A DNA stretch of 64,000 nt from Bacteroidota bacterium. GTDB taxonomy: Bacteria > Bacteroidota > Bacteroidia > 2-12-FULL-35-15. Position 1 is the first letter of the stretch. Every line of letters begins with the position of its first letter. The stretch is taken from NCBI GenBank assembly GCA_947504725.1, contig CANNHN010000004.1, positions 135,203 to 199,202 of the forward strand. The letters run 5' to 3'. Below, one piece after another: positions 2,784 to 63,823 of this stretch. The notes under the pieces were generated by a model. It was not told where the DNA came from. It saw only the letters and a program-made list of their open reading frames with translations, and made no database searches. The position numbers and the translations under genes are program-made.

Positions 2784-3279
2784 TTGTAATGAAATTTGTT
2801 TTGCAAATTGTTTTGGTTGATTCTCTTAAAATATATATGTTATATACAAATCTCTGAAAAATTTATTTTCAAACAAAAAATAAATGTATTTTTTTTATTT
2901 TTTTATTTTTAACGATTTTCGATAGTTTAACATTCTACTATAAAAATAAAGCATAATTATATAAATACATAATTTTTTCTAGCAAATTTTGTTTGTGGTT
3001 TATTCTAAAAAATCATGAATTAAATAAAATAGTGCACTTTTTTTACCTCAATACAATAATTGTATTTGTTTAACGTTATTCTCATAATTACAGTTACATC
3101 CCCCCGCTAATATTTTTTTGAAAGCTTTTAAGTAATTCCTTTGTTTTTGGAGTGTTCCCCTGCTTATACTAATTGATTTTATTGCATTTTCTGAAAAATC
3201 ATTATTTAGATTATGGAATAATATAAAGCAGAGCATCTTAGTATCAAAACAAAATAGTTCACTCTAAAACTTAAAGGCC

Positions 3280-4044
3280 ATGAACACAATTTTCAACTCC
3301 GGAGACAAATTCAACGAATTGCTTTTCGAAAACAAAAACAAAGCATATGGCGCATATGCTATTCGTAATTCAGAAAAGGACAGTATTGCAGTTTCTTTAT
3401 TGATTACGTCTGCCTTTTTTGGACTATTAGTTATGTTGTGCTTTGCTCTTACAAAAACAAAAATTGAGATTCCTACTTTTGAAGGAAATGAACCACCAAT
3501 AATTTTGTCTGGTCCAGAAATTGAAATGCCAAAACCACTTGAGCAACCTAAGCCACCCAAAGCGCCTGAAACACCTAAATCTACCAGTGGAGCATTTGTT
3601 GCTTCGAGTGACCCTCAAAAAACGAATGTAGATGCAAATAATAATCTGCCTATTAGTAAAAATCCTAATCCGACAGGAAAAGATAGTGCAGCACCAGAAG
3701 GGCCAGTAGTTAAATTACCAGAAGCTCCTGAAAAATTGCCAGAAGTTGTGCCGTATGCTGATATAATGCCGAGTTTAAAGAATATGGCTCAGTTTATTGC
3801 AGATAATTTAAAATACCCTCGAAATGCTGTTGGTAATGGAACAGAGGGAACTGTATTTGTGACTTTTGTTGTAGAAAGAGATGGATCGATTACCGATATT
3901 AAATTGTTAAAAGGAATTGGTGATGGCTGTGAGCAAGAAGCGATGCGTGTTGTAAAAATGATGCCAGTTTGGGAGCCTGGAACATTGAAAGGGGTTCCGA
4001 AGCGTGTACAATGTAATTTACCAATAAAGTTTAGTCTTAAATAA
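3280..4044 (+). CDS. tonB: Energy transducer TonB (C-terminal TonB domain)
   Basis: N-terminal TM segment, Pro-rich spacer (PKPLEQPKPPKAPETPK) and a C-terminal TonB-like domain. Located upstream of exbB-exbD. Confidence 0.6.
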   Translation: MNTIFNSGDKFNELLFENKNKAYGAYAIRNSEKDSIAVSLLITSAFFGLLVMLCFALTKTKIEIPTFEGNEPPIILSGPEIEMPKPLEQPKPPKAPETPKSTSGAFVASSDPQKTNVDANNNLPISKNPNPTGKDSAAPEGPVVKLPEAPEKLPEVVPYADIMPSLKNMAQFIADNLKYPRNAVGNGTEGTVFVTFVVERDGSITDIKLLKGIGDGCEQEAMRVVKMMPVWEPGTLKGVPKRVQCNLPIKFSLK

Positions 4045-4170
4045 ACAATGCAGTGTTTATAAGTTGCATCAACAATAAAAAAAGTGCCACTTCATATAAT
4101 TAATTTAGCAATCGTGAGTTATACATTCATGATTGCTTTTTTATATTAAATAAAATCTAAACTAATAAAC

Positions 4171-4926
4171 ATGTTAAATTCTGTTTTATTACAAATTGTA
4201 AGTGGTGCAACTAATGTAGCGAATCAAGTTGTTGACACAGCTAAAGCTGCTGTTACTCAACTAAGCCAACTGCCAATTCCAACAACTGCTGAAGCTCCAA
4301 AACAAGCTTCTCTTTCATTACTTGAACTCGTTATGAAAGGTGGAATTATTATGATTCCGATGGGTATACTTTCTATTATTACGCTTTATTTTTTCTTTGA
4401 GCGATTAATGACAATCAGCAAAGCATCTAAGTTGGATAAAAATTTCATGAATAGCATCAAAGATTTTATTCATAATGGAAACATCGATGCCGCAAAATCA
4501 CTTTGCAGAAATACGATTAGTCCTGCAGCCAGAATGATTGAAAAGGGTGTTAGTCGAATTGGAAAACCAATCAAAGAAATTGAAGAGGCAATGGAAAGTG
4601 TTGGAAAATTGGAGATAAACAGGTTGGAGAAAAACTTAAGTGTATTGAGTTTGGTTGGAAGAATCGCTCCGATTCTTGGATTTGTTGGAACAATTGCTGG
4701 AGTTATTAAAATCTTTTATGATATTTCATTGACAGACAATATTAGTATTGGTGTTATTTCTGGTGGTTTGTATCAAAAGATGATTACAAGTGCATCTGGT
4801 TTAGTTATTGGTTTGATTGCATTTATTGGATATTATATTTTAAACGCAATGTTGGATAAAACCATTAATAAAATGGAAACAGCATCTGTAGAATTTATCG
4901 ATCTTTTACAAGAACCAACTAAATAA
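4171..4926 (+). CDS. exbB: MotA/TolQ/ExbB proton-channel family protein
   Basis: Multi-TM protein with the ExbB-like core GIAPILGFVGT. Adjacent to exbD. Confidence 0.8.
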   Translation: MLNSVLLQIVSGATNVANQVVDTAKAAVTQLSQLPIPTTAEAPKQASLSLLELVMKGGIIMIPMGILSIITLYFFFERLMTISKASKLDKNFMNSIKDFIHNGNIDAAKSLCRNTISPAARMIEKGVSRIGKPIKEIEEAMESVGKLEINRLEKNLSVLSLVGRIAPILGFVGTIAGVIKIFYDISLTDNISIGVISGGLYQKMITSASGLVIGLIAFIGYYILNAMLDKTINKMETASVEFIDLLQEPTK

Positions 4927-6144: not shown

Positions 6145-6206
6145 AATTCAATTACTTTTGTAGAAGTCTTCAATTACAATTTGTGACGTTACTTTATTTA
6201 AACACG

Positions 6207-6288
6207 TCATTGCGAGGAACGAAGCAATCTCTCATGATGAGGACATTCGTCACCATTGAACAGAGATTGCTTCGTTCCTCGCAATGAC
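6207..6288. repeat. Palindromic intergenic repeat, subfamily A (arms gtcattgcgaggaacgaagcaatctct / agagattgcttcgttcctcgcaatgac, approximately 28-nt loop)
   Basis: Near-perfect 27-bp inverted repeat. A second copy lies at 63704..63786. Located between tonB2 and folC. Confidence 0.7.
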
Positions 6289-6334
6289 GGAAGTGAGTTG
6301 CACTTAGCTTAGTCGAACAACACAGGAGTAAATT

Positions 6335-14418: not shown

Positions 14419-15693
14419 ATGATAGATATTAGAGCATACAGCAAAAAAATATTTTTATTTGCTACCGCTATTATAGTTGTAGAGAGCGTTAAATCCCAAT
14501 CAAGTCAAAGTCAACGTGCTGAAGAACTTCAGTTAAATACGATAACTACAGCCGTTCCGTTTTTGCTTATTACACCCGACTCAAGAGCAGGTGGAATGGG
14601 AGATGCTGGCGTTGCGTCTTTAAACGATGTGAATGCTGTTCATTGGAATGCATCAAAATTAGGCTTTACAACAAAAAAAATGGGCTTTGGTGTTTCTTAT
14701 ACGCCATGGTTAAGAGCGTTGGTGCCAGATATTAATTTAGCATACATCACTGGTTTTTATAAGATGAAGAAGAAAGGAACTATTGCAGGTTCACTTCGTT
14801 ATTTTTCTTTAGGTGATATCACTTTCACAGATGCAAATGGGCAAACTACTGGACAATTTCGTCCAAATGAATTTGCACTTGATGTAGCTTATGGAACAAA
14901 GTTGGCAGATAATTTTGCAGTTGGTTTAGCGGTTCGATACATCAACTCAAATTTAACTGGAAATGCACTTGTTCAAAGTTCACAAACTCGTCCAGGTCGT
15001 GCAGTTGGCGTTGATCTTTCTGCATTATACAAAAAAGAGAAAGTGAAACTTGCAGATAAAAAAGCAATTGTTGCTTTTGGAATTAATATTTCAAATATTG
15101 GAAATAAAATGTCATACTCAGATAGAGGTGATAAAAATAGCGATGATTTTATTCCAATTAATTTGCGTTTAGGTGGATCGTTAAATGTGAATTTGGATGA
15201 TTATAATTCAATTTCAGTTTTAGCAGATATCAATAAATTATTAGTTCCAACTCCTCCCACTTATAAATTTAAAGTTGATGCAAATGGAGTAACTACAGGA
15301 GAAATAGACGTAGATGCGGATGGGAATCCAATAATTGAAAAAGGAAAAGATCCTAACCGCGGAGTAGCAGAAGGAATGTTTGGTTCGTTTACGGATGCTC
15401 CAGGTGGTGGAAAGGAAGAGTTAAGAGAACTTAACTATTCGCTTGGTTTGGAATATTGGTACAATCATTTGTTTGCTGTTCGTGCAGGATATTTTTATGA
15501 GCATCCAACAAAAGGGAATCGTCAATTTTTTACAATTGGTGCGGGAGTTAAGTACAATGTTTTTGGGTTAGATTTTGCATATTTGATTCCAACTCAACAA
15601 CGTAATCCTTTAGAAAACACATTGCGTTTTACTCTTACATTTGACTTTGATGCATTCAAAGATCAAAACAAAGAAGAAGCAAAAACAGAATAA
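14419..15693 (+). CDS. porV: T9SS outer-membrane shuttle protein PorV (LptO), FadL-like beta-barrel
   Basis: 424-aa signal-peptide OMP immediately downstream of porU, which is the conserved synteny. It shows the alternating beta-strand pattern of a barrel. Confidence 0.65.
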   Translation: MIDIRAYSKKIFLFATAIIVVESVKSQSSQSQRAEELQLNTITTAVPFLLITPDSRAGGMGDAGVASLNDVNAVHWNASKLGFTTKKMGFGVSYTPWLRALVPDINLAYITGFYKMKKKGTIAGSLRYFSLGDITFTDANGQTTGQFRPNEFALDVAYGTKLADNFAVGLAVRYINSNLTGNALVQSSQTRPGRAVGVDLSALYKKEKVKLADKKAIVAFGINISNIGNKMSYSDRGDKNSDDFIPINLRLGGSLNVNLDDYNSISVLADINKLLVPTPPTYKFKVDANGVTTGEIDVDADGNPIIEKGKDPNRGVAEGMFGSFTDAPGGGKEELRELNYSLGLEYWYNHLFAVRAGYFYEHPTKGNRQFFTIGAGVKYNVFGLDFAYLIPTQQRNPLENTLRFTLTFDFDAFKDQNKEEAKTE

Positions 15694-15736
15694 TCTCATT
15701 GCAAAAATTTCATCATTAATGATGTGAATATAAAGT

Positions 15737-15789
15737 CTTCGACTCCGCTCAGCCTGACAAACGAATTGTCACACTGAGCGGAGTCGAAG
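15737..15789. repeat. REP-like hairpin repeat, subfamily B (cttcgactccgctcagcctgaca / tgtcacactgagcggagtcgaag)
   Basis: Inverted repeat in the porV-ispF gap. Its arm is identical to sequence inside pdhC and is related to the copies at 36279, 59626, 38538, 32608 and 27051. Confidence 0.7.
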
Positions 15790-15836
15790 TTTTTACGGAG
15801 AGTCTATAATTGATTTCACAAAAGAGATAACAAATT

Positions 15837-16313
15837 ATGAAAATAAGAGTAGGATTTGGATTTGATGTTCATCAATTGAAAGAAGGAAATGATCTCTGGT
15901 TGGGCGGAATTAAATTGACTCATAGCAAAGGAGCTGTTGGTCATTCGGATGCGGATGTTTTGATTCACGCTATTTGTGATGCATTGTTAGGTGCGGCAGG
16001 TATGCGAGATATTGGATTTCATTTTCCTGATACGTCTTCGGAATTTAAAGGAATTGATAGTAAGATATTATTAGAAAGAGTGAATCAACTTTTGCAAAAG
16101 GAAGGGTATTCCATAAATAATATTGATTGTACATTGGTATTGGAGCTACCAAAGATAAATCCTCACATTGATGAAATGAAAAAAACGGTGGCATCAATTT
16201 TAAATGTAGAGGTGAATGATATTGGAATAAAAGCCACCACGAATGAGAAGCTTGGTTATGTTGGCAGAGAAGAAGGCGTTTGCGCTTATGCAGTAGCGCT
16301 TATTCAAAAATAA
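15837..16313 (+). CDS. ispF: 2-C-methyl-D-erythritol 2,4-cyclodiphosphate synthase
   Basis: MKIRVGFGFDVH...HSDADV, the IspF signature. 158 aa. Confidence 0.9.
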   Translation: MKIRVGFGFDVHQLKEGNDLWLGGIKLTHSKGAVGHSDADVLIHAICDALLGAAGMRDIGFHFPDTSSEFKGIDSKILLERVNQLLQKEGYSINNIDCTLVLELPKINPHIDEMKKTVASILNVEVNDIGIKATTNEKLGYVGREEGVCAYAVALIQK

Positions 16314-18969: not shown

Positions 18970-19386
18970 TTATTTTACGATTTCGATTGTTTCGCATTCA
19001 ACCGTTTGTTTTTTCTTTGTGATCTCAACATCTTTAATAACGGCCAGCCTGTTAACAGTTGTTAAGGATGTACCACTTGAATAAGAATATATCGTATAGT
19101 TGCCAGCGCGCAAGTATTTAAATTCATAAATTCCATCAAAATTTGCTTGTACCTTATCGCCATAAGTAGCATCATCACCGTAAATGATGTAGACATCTTC
19201 ATAGGCACCAGCAAATTCTCCTCCTAGTGAAGCAGGGATTGCTATGCCAAGGTCGTTGTATCTTTTTACCCAAATTTTTCCAGTAATTGTTGCCTTTCCT
19301 CCTTCACCTTCTGATTTTTTACATGAAGAAATTGATAAGAGACTTACTGATATAAGTGATAGAATAATTATTTTGAATATTTTCAT
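18970..19386 (-). CDS. Small lipoprotein, tandem paralog 1
   Basis: 138 aa with lipobox ..SSCKK. Paralogous to the adjacent 141-aa gene (shared GKIWV..YN.LG, GEFAGA.EDVYIIYGDD..YG.KV, DGIFEFKYLR.G.Y). Confidence 0.5.
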   Translation of the reverse strand: MKIFKIIILSLISVSLLSISSCKKSEGEGGKATITGKIWVKRYNDLGIAIPASLGGEFAGAYEDVYIIYGDDATYGDKVQANFDGIYEFKYLRAGNYTIYSYSSGTSLTTVNRLAVIKDVEITKKKQTVECETIEIVK

Positions 19387-19405: not shown

Positions 19406-19831
19406 TTATTTATAAATAGTTAGAGTGCCTGCGTCAACGGTTTCTTTTTTGTTAGCTATGTTTACTGAAACATCTACTGTTTTTATTCCTGAGCCATAAA
19501 AATAGGACGCACGTGTAGTGTCTTTAGACTTTACATAAACTTTGTAATCGCCTTTTCGTAAATATTTAAATTCAAAAATCCCATCAGGTCCTGATTTTAC
19601 TTTGTTACCATAGCTTATATCGTCACCATAAATGATATAAACATCTTCATCTGCTCCTGCAAATTCACCTTTTAAAAAATAGGGAGGACTAGATATACTT
19701 CCTAATGTGTTGTAGTTTTCAACCCATATTTTTCCTTGAATAGTTGCTTGTCCGCCTTCTCCTTCTGGTTTGTTGCACGATGCAATTATCAGTGCTACAG
19801 TAACAGCTAATAATAAGATTTTTTTACTCAT
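19406..19831 (-). CDS. Small lipoprotein, tandem paralog 2
   Basis: 141 aa with lipobox ..ASCNK. About 50% identical to paralog 1. Confidence 0.5.
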   Translation of the reverse strand: MSKKILLLAVTVALIIASCNKPEGEGGQATIQGKIWVENYNTLGSISSPPYFLKGEFAGADEDVYIIYGDDISYGNKVKSGPDGIFEFKYLRKGDYKVYVKSKDTTRASYFYGSGIKTVDVSVNIANKKETVDAGTLTIYK

Positions 19832-27033: not shown

Positions 27034-27050
27034 TATGTTGGTATTTGGCG

Positions 27051-27072
27051 TCTCAACTCCGCTCGAAGTGAC
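27051..27072. repeat. Solo arm of REP-like repeat subfamily B (ctcaactccgctcgaagtgaca)
   Basis: Matches the arm consensus cttcgactccgctca..gtgaca without an inverted partner. It lies between cdd and pdhA. Confidence 0.5.
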
Positions 27073-27140
27073 AAAAAGGTTAAGAGTTTTAGTTTTGAAT
27101 TATAATTGTTAAATTTGTAGTTCTACACAAATCGAACACT

Positions 27141-28203: not shown

Positions 28204-28240
28204 AAATCCTAAATCCTAAATTTCTAAATCCTAAATAGAA
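28204..28240. repeat. Short tandem heptamer (atcctaa x3, imperfect) in the pdhA-E2 gap
   Basis: The sequence aaatcctaaatcctaaatttctaaatcctaaat sits between the two PDH genes. Confidence 0.4.
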
Positions 28241-28247
28241 TAAGAGT

Positions 28248-29858
28248 ATGGCTGAAGTAGTACGAATGCCCAAATTAAGTGATACCATGACAGATGGTGT
28301 TGTAGCGAAGTGGCATAAAAAAGTAGGCGACAAAGTAAAATCGGGTGAATTGCTTGCTGATATCGAAACGGATAAAGCAACCATGGAATTTGAATCTTTT
28401 CAAACAGGCGTTTTATTGCACATTGGAGTTCAAGAAGGAAAAGGTGCACCCGTTGAATCTATACTTGCAATTTTAGGAAAAGAAGGCGAAGATATAACCG
28501 CTTTATTGGCTGGTGAAGCAAGTAAGTCGACAGAGGCGAAAGAAGAAGTAAAAGCAGAATCTAAAAAAGTTGACACTTCGACTCCGCTCAGTGTGACAAA
28601 AGCGGTAGAAGTAAAAATTCCAGAAACAGTTCAGATAGTTCGTATGCCTCAGTTGAGTGATACAATGACAGAAGGTGTTGTTGCGAAGTGGCATAAAAAA
28701 GTAGGAGATTCCGTGAAGTCAGGTGAATTGCTTGCTGATATAGAAACAGATAAAGCTACAATGGAATTTGAATCGTTCCAAAGCGGAGTGATTTTATACA
28801 TTGGTGTTCAACAAGGTGGTCGTGCTCCTGTTGAATCAATACTTGCAATTTTAGGAAAGGGTGGAGAAGATGTGACAGCGATTGTTGAAGCGGAGAAAAA
28901 TAAAACTGCATCGCCCGTTGCTGAAGAAGTAAAACAGGTTGTTGCTGAAAAATTAACAACTACGGTTGCTGCAAAAACAACAGTTAAACAAACAGTTGTA
29001 TCAAACGGAGAACGCACAAAAATATCTCCTTTAGCAAAAAAATTAGCAGAAGATAAAGGAATTAGTGTTGCAGCTTTAAAAGGCAGTGGCGACAATGGTC
29101 GTATCATCAAGCGCGATATTGATAACTTTAATTCCAATGGTGCGATGTCAACTTTTGTTGGCGTAGAAAGTTTCACAGAAGAACCAGTTTCGCAAATGCG
29201 TAAAGTAATTGCAAAACGTTTGGGTGAAAGTAAATTTACTGCTCCACATTTCTATTTAACAATGGAAATTGATATGGACGAAGCAATAAAAGCACGTGAG
29301 GCAATTAATACAGTTGCTGGATTAAAAATCTCCTTTAACGATATCGTAATAAAAGCGGTTGCTGCTAGTTTGCGCAAACATCCAAAAGTAAATTCATCTT
29401 GGTTAGGAGATAAGATTCGTTACAACAATCATATTCATATTGGTGTTGCTATTGCAGTAGAAGAAGGATTGTTAGTTCCTGTTGTTCGTTTTGCGGATGG
29501 TAAAACATTGACACAAATTGGAACTGAAGTTCGTAACTATGCTGTGAAAGCACGTGAGAAAAAATTACAACCAAGCGATTGGGAAGGAAATACATTTACC
29601 ATTTCTAATTTAGGAATGTTTGGTATAGAACAATTTACTGCAATTATAAATACTCCTGATTCTTGTATTCTCGCTGTTGGCGGAATCAAACAAACACCTG
29701 TTGTAAAAAACGGACTAGTTGTTCCAGGCAATGTTATGAAAGTAACTTTATCTTGTGATCACCGAACAGTTGATGGAGCAGTAGGTTCTGCATTCTTGCA
29801 AACATTAAAACACAATTTGGAAAATCCTGTGTTGATGTTGGGTGCTAGTGCGATATAG
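28248..29858 (+). CDS. pdhC: Dihydrolipoyllysine-residue acetyltransferase (E2) with two tandem lipoyl domains
   Basis: Two ETDKATMEFESF lipoyl motifs, an E3-binding region (ISPLAKKLAEDKGI..) and the catalytic DHRTVDGA motif. Confidence 0.85.
   Translation: MAEVVRMPKLSDTMTDGVVAKWHKKVGDKVKSGELLADIETDKATMEFESFQTGVLLHIGVQEGKGAPVESILAILGKEGEDITALLAGEASKSTEAKEEVKAESKKVDTSTPLSVTKAVEVKIPETVQIVRMPQLSDTMTEGVVAKWHKKVGDSVKSGELLADIETDKATMEFESFQSGVILYIGVQQGGRAPVESILAILGKGGEDVTAIVEAEKNKTASPVAEEVKQVVAEKLTTTVAAKTTVKQTVVSNGERTKISPLAKKLAEDKGISVAALKGSGDNGRIIKRDIDNFNSNGAMSTFVGVESFTEEPVSQMRKVIAKRLGESKFTAPHFYLTMEIDMDEAIKAREAINTVAGLKISFNDIVIKAVAASLRKHPKVNSSWLGDKIRYNNHIHIGVAIAVEEGLLVPVVRFADGKTLTQIGTEVRNYAVKAREKKLQPSDWEGNTFTISNLGMFGIEQFTAIINTPDSCILAVGGIKQTPVVKNGLVVPGNVMKVTLSCDHRTVDGAVGSAFLQTLKHNLENPVLMLGASAI
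28259..28496 (+). repeat. Lipoyl-domain coding repeat, copy 1 (copy 2 at 28638..28875, approximately 85% nt identity)
   Basis: Direct nucleotide-level tandem duplication within the E2 CDS. Confidence 0.7.
28576..28598 (+). repeat. Exact 23-nt copy of the REP-like subfamily B arm (cttcgactccgctcagtgtgaca) embedded in the pdhC inter-lipoyl linker
   Basis: Identical to the reverse complement of 15767..15789. It encodes ..TSTPLSVTK.. in the flexible linker. Confidence 0.7.
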
Positions 29859-32579: not shown

Positions 32580-32607
32580 CATGCTCTTCTCAATTAGCAA
32601 GATTTCT

Positions 32608-32628
32608 CGGCTTCGCTCGAAATGACAA
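32608..32628. repeat. Solo arm of REP-like repeat subfamily B (tcggcttcgctcgaaatgaca)
   Basis: Matches ctcgactccgctcgaaatgac. It lies in the 55-bp gap between the convergent MFS gene and the 619-aa gene. Confidence 0.5.
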
Positions 32629-36259: not shown

Positions 36260-36278
36260 CTGTTGGCAATAAAAATTT

Positions 36279-36327
36279 CTTGACTTCGTTCGAAATGACA
36301 GTCCGTTGGCATTTCGAACGAAGTCGA
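36279..36327. repeat. REP-like hairpin, subfamily B variant (cttgacttcgttcgaaatg / catttcgaacgaagtcgag)
   Basis: Perfect 13-bp core inverted repeat between the DUF4890-like gene and recG. No T-tract follows it. Confidence 0.65.
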
Positions 36328-36356
36328 GAAATAATTTAGTAAATTCGCATAGAAAT

Positions 36357-38468: not shown

Positions 38469-38537
38469 TACGAATATCGAATCAAAAACGAATTTTACGA
38501 ATCGGTGTTGATGTATTAGTTCTAATGTTATTTGTTT

Positions 38538-38560
38538 GTCATTTCGAGCGGAGTCGAGAA
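38538..38560. repeat. Solo arm of REP-like repeat subfamily B (gtcatttcgagcggagtcgagaa)
   Basis: Lies between the convergent recG and the 412-aa membrane-protein gene. Confidence 0.5.
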
Positions 38561-38578
38561 ATCTTTTTAGTTTAAGCG

Positions 38579-39949: not shown

Positions 39950-40143
39950 TAACACATAGAAACATAGCTATTTTTTCTTGTTAAAAATATAGAGTCAAAT
40001 AAAATAATTAATCATCATAGAAAAATAAATTTTTAAACATAGAGATTGAGTTGTATAGTATAAGCTCTATGTTTGAAGCTTGCTGCAACTATGTTAAATT
40101 ACCTAAATACAAAACACTTAAAAACTATGTGTCTATGTGTTTA
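39950..40143. repeat. MITE-like element, copy 1 (TIRs aacacatagaaacatag ... ctatgtgtctatgtgtt; internal nested inverted repeat aaacatagag/ctctatgttt)
   Basis: 17-18 bp terminal inverted repeats about 175 bp apart. It shares its termini and an internal agcttcaaacatagag motif with copy 2 at 44291..44507. Confidence 0.55.
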
Positions 40144-40180
40144 AAAGCCATGTTGCATTCTTTTAATATCTAAATATCAT

Positions 40181-42442
40181 ATGTCAGAAACTCGCTTTTA
40201 TAAAAAGATAGCATTAAGCTTAAATATCAACGAAAAACAAGTTGATGCAGTTGTTGGATTGTTGGATGATGGAGCTACCATTCCGTTTATTTCCCGTTAT
40301 CGTAAGGAAATGACAGGTAGTTTGGATGAAGTACAAGTTGCGAATGTGCGTGATGAAATTGAACGTTTACGCGTTTTAGAAAAACGCAGAGAATTTATTT
40401 TAGAATCTATTGAAGGTCAAGGTAAATTGACTCCCGAATTAATTTCGTTGATACGATATGCAGAAACTGTTTCAGCATTGGAAGATATTTATTTGCCATT
40501 CAAACCAAAACGCAGAACAAAAGCAACCATTGCGCGTGAAAAAGGATTGGAACCTTTAGCGCAAATAATTTTTGAGCAAGGGAAAGTAGATTTAGAGGAA
40601 GAAGCGGCAAAGTTTATTGCTGAGGATGAATCCACAACACCGAGTGTTGCTACAATAGAAGAAGCACTTTCCGGAGCACGAGATATTGTTGCGGAGTGGA
40701 TCAACGAAAACGCAGAAGCACGAGATAAAATTCGTAATTTATTTAAACGTTCGGCAACTATAAAAAGTAAAGTCTTGAGAGGAAAAGAAGAGGCTGGAGA
40801 AAAATTCAAAGATTATTTTGATTGGGAAGAAAATTTAATGGGTTGTCCGTCTCATAGATTATTGGCTATCCGAAGAGGAGAGAGTGAAGAAATATTAAGT
40901 ATTCACATTATGCCTCCCGAGGATGAAGCGATCGATATTCTTGTGAATCAATTTGTGAAATCAAACAATGCTGCTGCTGCACAAGTGAAATTGGCATGTG
41001 ATGATGCTTACAACCGAATGATGCAAGGTTCGATTGAAACGGAAATGCGCATGATGACAAAAGAACTTGCGGATGAAAAAGCAATTCAGGTTTTTGCTGA
41101 CAATTTAAGAGAGTTGATGTTGGCTTCTCCACTTGGACAAAAAGCAATATTGGCAATTGACCCAGGATTTAGAACAGGTTGCAAAGTGGTGGTGCTTGAC
41201 AAACAAGGAAAATTATTGGATGATACAGTAATCTATCCGCACGAACAAAATAAAATATTCCAAACCAAACAATTGATTTTAGCTTGGTGCGATAAACATA
41301 AAGTTGAAGCGATTGCAATTGGAAATGGAACAGCAGGAAGAGAAACCGAAACATTTATAAGAAGCATTGAAGAACTTCCGAAAAGTATCAATGTAATTAT
41401 GGTGAACGAAAGTGGTGCATCTATTTATTCGGCATCCGATGTGGCGCGTGAAGAATTTGCTGATAAAGACATCACTGTGCGTGGAGCAGTTTCTATTGGA
41501 AGAAGATTGGCAGATCCTTTAGCAGAATTAGTAAAGATTGATGCGAAGTCGATTGGAGTGGGACAATATCAACACGATGTGGATCAATATCTTCTGAAGA
41601 AAAAATTAGATGAAGTTGTTGAGAGTTGTGTAAATAAAGTGGGAGTGGAAGTGAACACAGCCAGTAAACAATTGTTGACATACGTTTCTGGATTGGGTGG
41701 AGTATTGGCAAGAAATATTGTTGAATATAGAAATGAAAACGGTCCGTTCAAATCCAGAAAAGATATTTTGAAAGTTCCGAGAATGGGAGAGAAAGCATAC
41801 GAACAAGCTGCAGGATTCTTGCGCATTGCAAATGGAAAAAATGCCTTGGACAAAAGTGCGGTGCATCCTGAAAGCTATGTTATTGTGGAGAAAATGGCAA
41901 CGGATTTAAATTGCACCATTGAGCAATTAATGACGGAGAAAGAGTTTCGTAAACAAATTTCTTTACAAAAATATGTGACGGAAAAATTTGGTCTGCCTAC
42001 CTTGAATGATATCATGAATGAGTTGGACAAGCCAGGAAGAGATCCACGAAAATCATTTGAAGTATTTAAGTTTGACGACAGCGTGCACGAAATTGCAGAT
42101 TTAAAAGTAGGAATGAAATTGCCAGGAATAGTAACCAACGTAACCAACTTCGGAGCCTTTGTTGATATTGGCGTTCACCAAGACGGATTGGTTCACGTTT
42201 CTCAATTGTCAAACACATTTGTCTCCGACCCTAACACGGTTGTGAAAGTTCAACAGCAAGTAATGGTAACAGTAACGGAAGTAGATGCACAAAGAAAGCG
42301 AATTGCATTATCAATGAAAGACAATGTTGCCAGCGCACCTGTTTCTAAACCTGCTCAAAACAATAATAAAAAAGGAAAACCTGAACCACCTGCAAATGAT
42401 TTTGCTAGTCAGTTGGCGGCTTTGAAGGATAAGTTTAAATAG
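40181..42442 (+). CDS. tex: Transcription accessory protein Tex (YqgF/HhH/S1 domains)
   Basis: 753 aa with a C-terminal S1 domain (GMKLPGIVTNVTNFGAFVDIG) and a conserved Tex N-terminus. Confidence 0.85.
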   Translation: MSETRFYKKIALSLNINEKQVDAVVGLLDDGATIPFISRYRKEMTGSLDEVQVANVRDEIERLRVLEKRREFILESIEGQGKLTPELISLIRYAETVSALEDIYLPFKPKRRTKATIAREKGLEPLAQIIFEQGKVDLEEEAAKFIAEDESTTPSVATIEEALSGARDIVAEWINENAEARDKIRNLFKRSATIKSKVLRGKEEAGEKFKDYFDWEENLMGCPSHRLLAIRRGESEEILSIHIMPPEDEAIDILVNQFVKSNNAAAAQVKLACDDAYNRMMQGSIETEMRMMTKELADEKAIQVFADNLRELMLASPLGQKAILAIDPGFRTGCKVVVLDKQGKLLDDTVIYPHEQNKIFQTKQLILAWCDKHKVEAIAIGNGTAGRETETFIRSIEELPKSINVIMVNESGASIYSASDVAREEFADKDITVRGAVSIGRRLADPLAELVKIDAKSIGVGQYQHDVDQYLLKKKLDEVVESCVNKVGVEVNTASKQLLTYVSGLGGVLARNIVEYRNENGPFKSRKDILKVPRMGEKAYEQAAGFLRIANGKNALDKSAVHPESYVIVEKMATDLNCTIEQLMTEKEFRKQISLQKYVTEKFGLPTLNDIMNELDKPGRDPRKSFEVFKFDDSVHEIADLKVGMKLPGIVTNVTNFGAFVDIGVHQDGLVHVSQLSNTFVSDPNTVVKVQQQVMVTVTEVDAQRKRIALSMKDNVASAPVSKPAQNNNKKGKPEPPANDFASQLAALKDKFK

Positions 42443-42444
42443 TA

Positions 42445-44238
42445 TTAATCCACAATCCCCATTTTCTTCATCAAAAATGAAGCATTCATTGTAGAGCAAA
42501 CGCCTTCAGATAGTTTGTAGTCGAAATTAAGTTTATCATCTTTGATGGTGATTTCAAAACGTAAATTTCTAACTTGATTTGGGAATTGTGCAGAGAGTTT
42601 TGATAATTCCACATCGTGGGTGGCAACAATTCCAACTCCGTTTAATCGTATAATCTTTTTGATGAGTGCTTCCGAACCGGCATGTTGGTCTTTGCTGTTT
42701 GTTCCTTTTAATATTTCATCTAATAAAAAGAAAACCTGCTTCCCTTGCTCGTATTGCTCCGTTAATAAATGAAGTCGTTTTAATTCTGCATAAAAGAAAG
42801 ATTCGTTTTCTTGCAAAGAGTCATTTGTTCTAAGACTTGTAAATAAGTGTATTGGCGAAAATTTGTAACGGCTTGCACAAACCGGTGCTCCAATCATTGC
42901 AATGGTTAGGTTTACGCCTATCGTTCTCAGGAATGTGCTTTTCCCAGCCATGTTTGCACCCGTTAGTAAATCCACTTTTGGTGCGTGTGAAATGTTGTAA
43001 TTATTTTTCACTAAAACATTTTCTTGAATAAGTGGATGTCCTAAGTTTTCTGCTTCAATTCTAAAATGATTTGTTTCCACCTCCGGGAAAACATAAGAAG
43101 GATTATTATGTGCATACATTCCTAAACTAATAAATGCATCAAATTCTCCAATAGCATCCACCCATTTCATAAAATGATCTTTGTTCTTTTTTCTCCAATT
43201 TTCAATGCCACACATCACGTTAATGTCCCAAAGTAAAATTCCGTTTAGTAAAACAGCTACCACAATGTTCATGCGCGCATCCAGCTTGTCGGTTAAGCTT
43301 TTAAGCTCTTTGATGTTGTCGCTAGCGGATGTATTCTCGTTTACAAAGGCAGCTTTTAATTTGATTAAGAGATCGGATTTAAATGACTCCTTTTCAATCA
43401 AAGAAATTAACTGACGGTATTTCTCTATGGAATCAAACTTGCGACTTAAATTATCGTGAATTTTATTGATGCGTTTAGTGTACGCACCAATGATCCCAAG
43501 CTGAATAAAAAATAAAAGTGTGAACGGTGTTTCGTTGATGATTCCAATGAAATAGAGCACAATAGCGGTGATAGATAAAATTGGAAAAAGAACACAAGAG
43601 ATTTTTAAAAACAAAGTAGAGAAAGTGTTTTTCTCATTCAACCATTCTTCAATTACTTCTTTGTCTTTTGCCTGTTCTTTATTTTGAAATCCCAATGCAA
43701 TAAATTCGTGATTCCATTCAGGCTTTGCCGACAATTCTTTTATCGCTTCCTGACGAGCAACAATTGTTGCTTTATCCATAAAAGGATAAGTCAGCCATTG
43801 TGCCAGTTTTATTCTACCCGTATAAGTTGAAGTCCGGTTTAAAATTTGAAAAATAGATTTTCTCCCAAAAATATCTAAGTCGGAAATAAAGTGATGTTGT
43901 TTATCAATAAACTCTGTTCCTTCATTTATTCCATTAAAATCTTTTTTCAAAAGTTGGATTTCAATTTCATTGACTTTGATTAGATTTTTTAAAAAACTTG
44001 TTTTTCTTTTTAGCTTGAGTTCCATGCTCAATAAAAAAAGAAAAAGAACAACGGTTATTCCAGCAAACGAATACGCAAAAACAGCTTGTGTTTTATAGAA
44101 AAAAATAAAGAGAACAAGAGCTAAAAGGAATAATAGAATTCGGGAATAGAAGATCTTGTTGAATTTACTATTCTGTTCATCAATTTCCTTGTTGAACTCG
44201 GATATTCTGTTTGTGTAGTATGTTAATAAGGTATTCAT
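42445..44238 (-). CDS. MutS-family ATPase (MutS2-like, domain V only; no Smr domain seen)
   Basis: Walker A GANMAGKST and Walker B LLDEILKGTN with N-terminal TM helices. I chose the ATG at 44238 over the TTG at 44247. Confidence 0.7.
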   Translation of the reverse strand: MNTLLTYYTNRISEFNKEIDEQNSKFNKIFYSRILLFLLALVLFIFFYKTQAVFAYSFAGITVVLFLFLLSMELKLKRKTSFLKNLIKVNEIEIQLLKKDFNGINEGTEFIDKQHHFISDLDIFGRKSIFQILNRTSTYTGRIKLAQWLTYPFMDKATIVARQEAIKELSAKPEWNHEFIALGFQNKEQAKDKEVIEEWLNEKNTFSTLFLKISCVLFPILSITAIVLYFIGIINETPFTLLFFIQLGIIGAYTKRINKIHDNLSRKFDSIEKYRQLISLIEKESFKSDLLIKLKAAFVNENTSASDNIKELKSLTDKLDARMNIVVAVLLNGILLWDINVMCGIENWRKKNKDHFMKWVDAIGEFDAFISLGMYAHNNPSYVFPEVETNHFRIEAENLGHPLIQENVLVKNNYNISHAPKVDLLTGANMAGKSTFLRTIGVNLTIAMIGAPVCASRYKFSPIHLFTSLRTNDSLQENESFFYAELKRLHLLTEQYEQGKQVFFLLDEILKGTNSKDQHAGSEALIKKIIRLNGVGIVATHDVELSKLSAQFPNQVRNLRFEITIKDDKLNFDYKLSEGVCSTMNASFLMKKMGIVD

Positions 44239-44290
44239 GGGGAGCAAAGCTACGTAAATAATGTAATTGTGCTTCTATTCATGGTAATTT

Positions 44291-44507
44291 AAACACATAG
44301 ACACATAGCTTTTTTGTTTGTTCTGGCTATGGTGTTCGTTCTGTTCATTTATATTATTCGTAATGTGTTTAATTCGTTTTGTTTGACGTGTTTTTTATAG
44401 GTTGAAACAAGCTTCAAACATAGAGATATGTCTCTGTAAAAAATTTATTTTTCTATCCTTTTTCTTTTCCTTTTACATACCCAGCAAATCTATGTGTCTA
44501 TGTGTTT
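44291..44507. repeat. MITE-like element, copy 2 (TIRs aacacatagacacatag ... ctatgtgtctatgtgtt)
   Basis: Perfect 17-bp terminal inverted repeat about 200 bp apart, in the same orientation as copy 1. Confidence 0.55.
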
Positions 44508-44598
44508 AAAATGGCGTTAACATTGGCTAGCACGAGGATGCCTTTTACTACGATTTATTTCTTATTTTTGTACCTATTCAAAGGATACAAATAGAACA

Positions 44599-59594: not shown

Positions 59595-59625
59595 TTGTTT
59601 TAAAATTATACGTTAAATATTAGTA

Positions 59626-59678
59626 TTCGACTTCGCTCACACTGACAATCGTGTTGTCACACTGAGTGGATTCGAAGT
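59626..59678. repeat. REP-like hairpin, subfamily B (cgacttcgctcacactgacaa / ttgtcacactgagtggattcgaag)
   Basis: Inverted repeat between the M1 peptidase gene and the UbiD-family gene. Confidence 0.65.
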
Positions 59679-59692
59679 GCTTACGAAGACAT

Positions 59693-63566: not shown

Positions 63567-63703
63567 GATTTTTATGAATTTTAGTCGTGCAATTCTTATT
63601 CCCGAAAGATAAAAGGATTTTGTGAGAATAAAAACAATCTTACATGAAATTTATATGAAATTGTTTTAAAGGAGCAATATTCTATGATACTTTCGATTAG
63701 AAC

Positions 63704-63786
63704 GTCATTGCGAGGAACGAAGCAATCTCTCCATATTTGTGGCGCATCAGCCATTCATGAGAGACTGCTTCGTTCCTCGCAGTGAC
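63704..63786. repeat. Palindromic intergenic repeat, subfamily A, copy 2 (gtcattgcgaggaacgaagcaatctctc / gagagactgcttcgttcctcgcagtgac)
   Basis: Second copy of the 6207..6288 element. It lies 3' of eno and upstream of gltA. Confidence 0.7.
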
Positions 63787-63823
63787 GCTTTTGATAGGCC
63801 TTTTCCTTAAGCTAAGGCTTCAA

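Follow-up and report, generated by a model that had tools for sequence, protein, structure and literature searches.

The window analyzed here is a stretch of 64,000 nucleotides from a Bacteroidota bacterium, with a G+C content of 34% and with uncultured Bacteroidia as its nearest relatives. It contains pdhC, encoding the dihydrolipoamide acetyltransferase of the pyruvate dehydrogenase complex (PDH E2), a protein of 536 amino acids in which two Biotin_lipoyl domains, an E3_binding domain, and a 2-oxoacid_dh catalytic domain were identified with Pfam. The domains are arranged in the order lipoyl 1, linker 1, lipoyl 2, linker 2, E3-binding, and catalytic. The features of the gene are as follows:

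28248-29858, plus strand: pdhC, dihydrolipoamide acetyltransferase (PDH E2), an intact open reading frame with Pfam domains; protein P0001 is 100% identical
28258-28501, plus strand: DNA of lipoyl domain 1, copy 1 of an internal repeat spaced by 378 nt (window self-comparison)
28506-28631, plus strand: linker 1, which separates the two lipoyl domains (about residues 87-128) and contains the REP unit
28572-28601, plus strand: 30-nt REP unit, GACACT / TCGACTCCGCTC / AGTGT / GACAAAA, encoding D109-K118
28575-28599, plus strand: exact 25-nt reverse-complement match to 15766-15790 (window repeat search)
28636-28879, plus strand: DNA of lipoyl domain 2, copy 2, 80% identical to copy 1 (window self-comparison)

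The 23-mer CTTCGACTCCGCTCAGTGTGACA at 28576-28598 on the plus strand is exactly matched at 15767-15789 on the minus strand. A first-pass annotation of this DNA had considered such a match implausible by chance, and this was confirmed by dinucleotide shuffles, from which 0.00 matches were expected; the identity even reaches 25 nt. Copies of the 23-mer with two mismatches were found at 15737-15759 on the plus strand and at 59655-59677 on the minus strand. In pdhC, translation of the unit in frame +0 gives DTSTPLSVTK (residues 109-118), by which linker 1 is ten residues longer. The repeat is thus, as annotated, part of the coding sequence of the flexible linker between the lipoyl domains, but the composition of this linker, described as Ala/Pro/Thr-rich, is according to the alignment of homologues Lys/Glu/Ser/Ala-rich. 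The swinging-arm linkers of E2 in 2-oxoacid dehydrogenase complexes tolerate variation in both length and sequence.

A REP-like family in the window and in related genomes

Judged from its sequence, the pdhC match is a singlet, a lone unit of a palindromic, REP-like family of Bacteroidia. The family unit consists of the conserved 12-nt core, flanked by a variable and covarying 5-bp stem, and then TGACA, which on the opposite strand reads as a TGTC/CGTC tag. In the 64-kb window, we identified nine copies of the core with at most one mismatch, where 0.66 were expected, and eight of these nine are intergenic, located just downstream of the stop codon of the preceding open reading frame and between unidirectional or convergent genes. 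Counting the 119 copies from the window and all fetched loci that had not been picked by the search seed, the flanking five bases were complementary at four or more of the five positions in 103 (87%), compared with approximately 27 of 119 (23%) when partners were shuffled. After the stem, 82 of the 119 copies, the one in pdhC among them, have GACA (TGTC when read on the opposite strand), and seven have GACG (CGTC). The stem types comprise ACACT/AGTGT, AGGCT/AGCCT, AGTCT/AGACT, ATCCT/AGGAT, ACCCT/AGGGT, GCTTC/GAAGT, and ATTTC/GAAAT. The following doublets and single units were located outside pdhC:

15731-15795, no strand: intergenic head-to-head REP doublet with arms at 15737-15759 and 15767-15789, the right arm being the exact partner of the pdhC copy
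27045-27075, plus strand: degenerate single REP unit in the spacer between E1 and the cytidine deaminase gene, which it closely follows
32592-32628, plus strand: single REP unit of the subfamily with a TTTC/GAAA stem, between convergent genes
36271-36332, no strand: REP doublet of the TTTC/GAAA subfamily
38536-38572, minus strand: single REP unit of the TTTC/GAAA subfamily, between convergent genes
59619-59680, no strand: intergenic REP doublet of the same subfamily as 15731-15795, with arms at 59625-59647 and 59655-59677 (repeat search, fold)

In the three head-to-head doublets (15731-15795, 36271-36332, and 59619-59680), the TGTC tags face each other across a spacer of 5-7 nt. Two of them were folded and form long hairpins, the doublet at 15731-15795 with an energy of -39.6 kcal/mol (z = -9.55) and the doublet at 59619-59680 with z = -3.74. 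The former is situated downstream of the open reading frame at 14419-15693 and upstream of the one starting at 15837. The identity between 28575-28599 and 15766-15790 reflects two copies that each match the consensus of a very widespread subfamily, and no recent exchange between the two loci. Rfam searches of the whole window gave zero matches at the gathering threshold, and a search with the doublet at an E-value threshold returned only spurious miRNA-hairpin matches far under the gathering score. No Y1_Tnp domain was found in the 10 small open reading frames of the window or in the Pfam-annotated genes of the syntenic loci.

The REP content of the cdd-E1, E1-E2, and porV-ispF spacers varies among related genomes. 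A unit is present in the cdd-E1 spacer of the window and of L081, L082, L084, L085, and L089, with complementary stems that differ by genome, and none was found in this spacer in L086. L084 has a REP doublet between E1 and E2, where the window has none. In L089, the spacer that precedes the YgbB/ispF gene is much shorter than that of the window, to which it cannot be aligned, and contains no doublet.

Outside these loci, the exact 26-mer ACACTTCGACTMCGCTCAGTGTGACA was found in more than 120 metagenome contigs. Examination of the context of approximately 80 loci showed that most copies are intergenic and that many occur as doublets. The 26-mer was also found in frame in Pfam-confirmed genes, encoding a SufS-like class-V aminotransferase (Aminotran_5), MnmA (where the copy is a doublet), RecN, an MG2-domain protein, an ABC-F protein, a Chorismate_bind enzyme, a class I/II aminotransferase, a radical SAM protein, and MmeI. 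The unit can be read without stop codons in four of its six frames, and all four are used in host genes.

Distribution of the unit among E2 orthologues

Among the 120 closest E2 homologues, the peptide xTSxxLSxxK was found in 12 and was absent from 108. The orthologue from L082 (P0003), which shares 91% amino acid identity and is sister to the window sequence and P0002 in a neighbor-joining tree, is without the repeat. Its linker, KKEEVKSAPVAEVKIP, resembles those of more distant REP-less homologues, and this allele is not the product of a precise excision. The unit is also missing from L001. The view that pdhC carries a copy of a dispersed repeat, in frame and tolerated in a flexible linker, is thus supported by L082 and by most orthologues, which have a different and shorter linker at this site. 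The annotation had proposed comparing orthologues for loss of either the linker segment or the second lipoyl domain along with the repeat; most of those without the repeat have a different, shorter linker segment, and L082, L001, and L002, which lack the repeat, have both lipoyl domains.

The 30-nt unit, GACACT-TCGACT[C/A]CGCTC-AGTGT-GACAAAA, is carried by L081, L083, L084, L085, L086, L087, L088, L089, L210, and L211, and has the same strand and frame in all of them. Most copies in linker 1 have the 3' flank GCGGTAGAAGTAAAAATTCC in common, and in L085 the unit lies upstream of an intact EEIKKPIAEVKIP segment. In L087 and L088 (P0022 and P0025), the unit is instead located in linker 2. The flanks of the linker-2 copy in L088 are similar to those of the linker-1 copy in L086, which suggests that a linker cassette has been exchanged between the two E2 linkers. 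When 88 related E2 coding sequences were scanned, 12 units with an intact stem were identified, all in linker 1 or linker 2 and none in a folded domain. The units in E2 linkers include further subfamilies and the opposite orientation, as seen at three loci:

L004, plus orientation, linker 1: stem ATGCT/AGCAA, peptide DASASLSN
L008, minus orientation, linker 1: stem GTTTC/GAAAC, peptide VVSSGVEKQ
L015, minus orientation, linker 2: stem ACTTC/GAAGT, peptide VTSSVVEKS

Since all 12 units lie in linkers, belong to several subfamilies, and occur in both orientations, the linkers of E2 are recurrent hosts of the REP family. The REP-bearing genes are patchily distributed in a neighbor-joining tree of E2 constructed without the linkers. 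Given the common 3' flank in linker 1 and the similar linker-2 flanks of L088, some of the seemingly independent occurrences in E2 may represent one event that was spread by recombination, and with linker-1 and linker-2 flanks this similar, the patchy distribution would fit recombination as well as independent insertion.

Based on these results, we consider it likely that the REP-like singlet embedded in frame in linker 1 of E2 has been kept as a tolerated, most likely neutral, insert. The unit would have become embedded in linker 1 before the window organism and some of its relatives diverged, in an ancestor that is putatively also that of P0002, P0004, P0005, P0009, P0015, and P0016, and would then have been inherited vertically, probably also moving by recombination between linkers or alleles. 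Its persistence may be attributed to the stop-free frame, the hydrophilic Thr/Ser/Pro-rich character of the decapeptide, and the tolerance of the swinging-arm linkers. With a similar degree of confidence, the effect on the protein is probably limited to the ten extra linker residues, carried as a neutral or near-neutral passenger.

Stem conservation and alternative explanations

Across all 11 orthologous E2 coding copies the stem is fully complementary (55 of 55 stem cells pair) and two double substitutions are present, an observation that runs against pure neutrality. The second stem pair is C-G in eight copies, G-C in L083, and T-A in L210, with a T/G intermediate in L084. This pairing pattern was reached by only seven of 500 shuffles, a count that is, however, also obtained with 5-25% of unconstrained alignments. 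In L086, positions -6 and +6 have both changed, giving a sixth pair. These stem-preserving changes could mean that the hairpin is still under selection, or that the coding copies have been overwritten by other REP variants through gene conversion.

A hairpin that is functional within the coding sequence, as an mRNA structure or as a single-stranded DNA site for a REP-processing machinery in addition to its role in encoding the linker, would account for the complete pairing, for the extra pair in L086, and for the stems in the cdd-E1 spacers that differ among genomes and yet stay complementary. We nevertheless regard such a function as distinctly unlikely. Folded as RNA, the single pdhC unit is no more stable than its shuffles (z = -0.5 sense, z = -0.1 antisense), so that a role in mRNA structure is unsupported by energy alone; the sample is small, the same pattern would result if the copies had been converted by other REP variants or if units had inserted repeatedly at a hot spot, and many orthologues manage without the element. 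It is likewise unlikely, if a little more conceivable, that translated REP hairpins in general are under structural selection and that the E2 linkers of Bacteroidia, together with loops in other enzymes, have been built repeatedly from them. If this were the case, the REP unit would be a dual-use module, at once a nucleic-acid signal and a ready-made flexible peptide, with compensatory stem changes visible in coding sequence.

The first-pass annotation had further described the two lipoyl domains as a recent tandem duplication with ~85% nucleotide identity and the repeat as a possible mark of its junction. The measured identity of the lipoyl-domain segments is 80-81% at the DNA level and 88% at the protein level. 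Lipoyl domains were counted in 80 genome loci, of which 78 were scored by motif, in addition to protein length. Two lipoyl-lysine motifs were identified in at least 67 of these 78 related Bacteroidia E2 genes, further ones being of matching length, and the only clearly single-domain enzymes, of about 420 amino acids, were those of L031, L039, and L047. E2 proteins with two lipoyl domains were found in, among others, Pedobacter, Cyclobacteriaceae, and Vicingaceae. Within the clade of the window, sequences of lipoyl domain 1 cluster with each other and so do those of lipoyl domain 2, by position and not by genome, and the duplication is therefore older than the clade. That the repeat is a recombination footprint marking the junction of a recent duplication is suggested by its location between the two 244-nt copies (28258-28501 and 28636-28879, 80% identical), but is refuted by orthologues such as L082, L001, and L002, which have the duplication only. 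The two-lipoyl architecture is the norm in Bacteroidia, and most orthologues with it are without the repeat. Furthermore, the same REP unit turns up in linker 2 of E2 and in genes that have no relation to E2.

Equally hard to credit is the reverse direction of descent, raised as an alternative in the same annotation, in which the linker of pdhC is the source of the repeat family. The pdhC copy is at the consensus of its subfamily and is conserved in several species, as would suit a source, but many stem subfamilies and related CGTC-tagged relatives are present within this window alone, and the majority of E2 orthologues lack the repeat. The wide spread of the 26-mer through unrelated contigs from diverse metagenomes, the intergenic position of most copies examined, and the in-frame copies in other genes show that the repeat was not derived from pdhC. 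Finally, although a metagenome-assembled genome may be misjoined at short repeats, a repeat-induced chimeric join in pdhC from assembly or binning has next to no probability, as the frame is intact, both flanks are colinear with those of orthologues, the identical protein is recorded on two contigs, and the E2 of ten other independent assemblies carries the unit at the homologous position.

Relation to known repeat systems

The embedded singlet and its relatives in the window appear to fit the superfamily of CGTC/TGTC-tagged REPs, which mainly form head-to-head dimers, lie downstream of open reading frames where the neighboring genes are unidirectional or convergent, and have occasional intragenic in-frame copies (Di Nocera, De Gregorio & Rocco 2013, PMC3733652). 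CGTC REPs occur in Bacteroidetes, with Gramella forsetii among the listed species; many of the repeats have TGTC in place of CGTC, and they have no known dedicated transposase (Di Nocera et al. 2013). The present family shares with them the palindromic units with an unpaired tag at one end, the many copies, the dimers, the sites downstream of open reading frames, and the in-frame intragenic copies. It differs from CGTC-1 to CGTC-4, which have stems of 8-9 bp and loops of 4-5 nt, in that five Watson-Crick pairs close the conserved 12-nt core; a stem of eight pairs would be possible only if tandem G.A pairs and G-C pairs inside the core are counted. Searching the literature with the core sequence gave only chance primer-like matches, and nothing relevant was found in the searched literature on in-frame palindromic elements in lipoyl linkers.

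The family was also compared with two other systems. The family resembles the REPINs of RAYT systems in its intergenic inverted doublets with a short spacer and long hairpins, and singlets of the pdhC type resemble decayed or partial REPINs (Bertels & Rainey 2011, PMC3116915). Unlike REPINs, however, it has a TGTC/CGTC tag instead of GTAG, it is present in pdhC as a singlet, and no RAYT was found among the 10 small open reading frames of the window. Rickettsia palindromic elements (RPE), which are cited by Di Nocera et al. (2013) with RPE-4 and RPE-6 counted as CGTC REPs, are likewise selfish palindromes inserted in frame into a gene that remains functional, adding a peptide at a tolerant site. 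The classical RPE-1 is longer than the 30-nt unit and RPE belong to another host phylum, whereas in the present case it is a single half-element that recurs in inter-domain linkers.

Intragenic in-frame REPs, including some in E2 genes, are already documented, and the pdhC case adds one more. The published list of intragenic copies includes GTAG-17 dimers in Oter_4191 (2-oxoglutarate dehydrogenase E2) and Oter_4192 (dihydrolipoamide acetyltransferase) of Opitutus terrae and CGTC-1 singlets in Sala_0526 (PDH E1) and Sala_1235 (PDH E2) of Sphingopyxis alaskensis (Di Nocera et al. 2013, Additional file 3), and thus hints at a similar E2 pattern in Verrucomicrobia and Alphaproteobacteria. A tolerance argument has likewise been made for modular proteins (Di Nocera et al. 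2013). What is added here is a Bacteroidia subfamily with a conserved 12-nt core, its recurrence in both linkers of E2 in many species, and the stem-preserving substitutions in coding sequence. With orthologues that have and lack the element, and with units in both linkers and both orientations, E2 offers a clean example of selfish palindromic repeats becoming protein-coding sequence, and its swinging-arm linkers in 2-oxoacid dehydrogenases emerge as recurrent, tolerant landing sites. Embedded repeats of this kind also account for the puzzling exact identity of stretches of housekeeping genes with intergenic DNA in Bacteroidia assemblies, and they can seed misassembly or spurious homology.

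Palindromic repeats upstream of E1 and elsewhere in the window

In the spacer between the cytidine deaminase gene cdd and E1, REP units were identified at one shared intergenic site in the window (27045-27075) and in the related loci L081, L082, L084, L085, and L089. The stems of these units vary by genome and are complementary every time (CTTC/GAAG, CCCC/GGGA, CCCT/AGGG, and CACT/AGTG), and remnants of a second unit were observed in L082 and L085. This pattern reflects either a hot spot for insertion or compensatory evolution at the site.

The window also contains two copies of another palindromic doublet, which carries CGTC itself as its tag and is distinct from the REP core family:

6205-6289, CGTC-tagged palindromic doublet
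63703-63787, CGTC-tagged palindromic doublet

In both doublets, CGTCATTGCGAGGAACGAAGCAATCTCT is followed by a spacer of 27-29 nt and then by the reverse complement of CGTCATTGCGAGGAACGAAGCAATCTCT. Complementarity between the arms is 93-100%, and over 90 nt the loci are 80% similar to each other. These doublets probably represent a second REP family belonging to the same superfamily.

The spacer between E1 and E2

Directly 5' of the E2 start, the spacer is made up of short tandem A/T-rich repeats in the window (28204-28240) as well as in L081, L085, and L089, with a unit that differs among genomes (AAATCCT in the window, AACTTAT in L089, and AAACTTT in L081). A gene of the 23S_rRNA_IVP family (PF05635), encoding 116 aa, is located between E1 and E2 in some relatives only, the 45-nt spacer of the window being without it:

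L082, 9465-9815, 23S_rRNA_IVP family gene
L086, 9609-9959, 23S_rRNA_IVP family gene
L087, 42-392, 23S_rRNA_IVP family gene

Lipoyl domains and linkers of E2 in relatives

Three close relatives (L031, L039, and L047; 73-77% identity, E2 match at 3001-4260) encode an E2 of ~420 aa with one lipoyl domain, in which the stretch past lip1 is still similar to linker 1 of the window. This single-lipoyl form looks like a secondary loss of the second domain. In the lipoyl-domain tree, lip1 and lip2 of L004 and L011 group together within each genome and not with their positional counterparts, pointing to concerted evolution of the two domains, or to gene conversion between them, in some lineages.

In the orthologous E2 proteins P0022, P0030, P0052, P0063, P0070-P0072, and P0086, the linkers consist of short motifs that are reiterated, for example KSEGGSSKSE, SEIGSVKSD, SPKSEISNPKSEI, and VQSSKLESSKV. 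Other DNA repeats, simple or dispersed, may be the source of these linkers. The VQSSK.ESSK cassette in L086 linker 1 is also present in linker 2 of L087 and L088.

Other repeats in the window

Two further repeats were identified:

40111-40145, 44288-44322, and 44486-44510, inverted-repeat motif TTTAAACACATAGACACATAG
19109-19222 and 19557-19670, 114-nt direct repeat, 75% identity

The inverted repeat, which shows no relation to the REP core, flanks a two-gene block (40181-44247) on both sides and appears again 173 nt beyond. The copies of the direct repeat lie inside two adjoining small ORFs on the minus strand (18970-19386 and 19406-19831), which are probably tandem paralogues.
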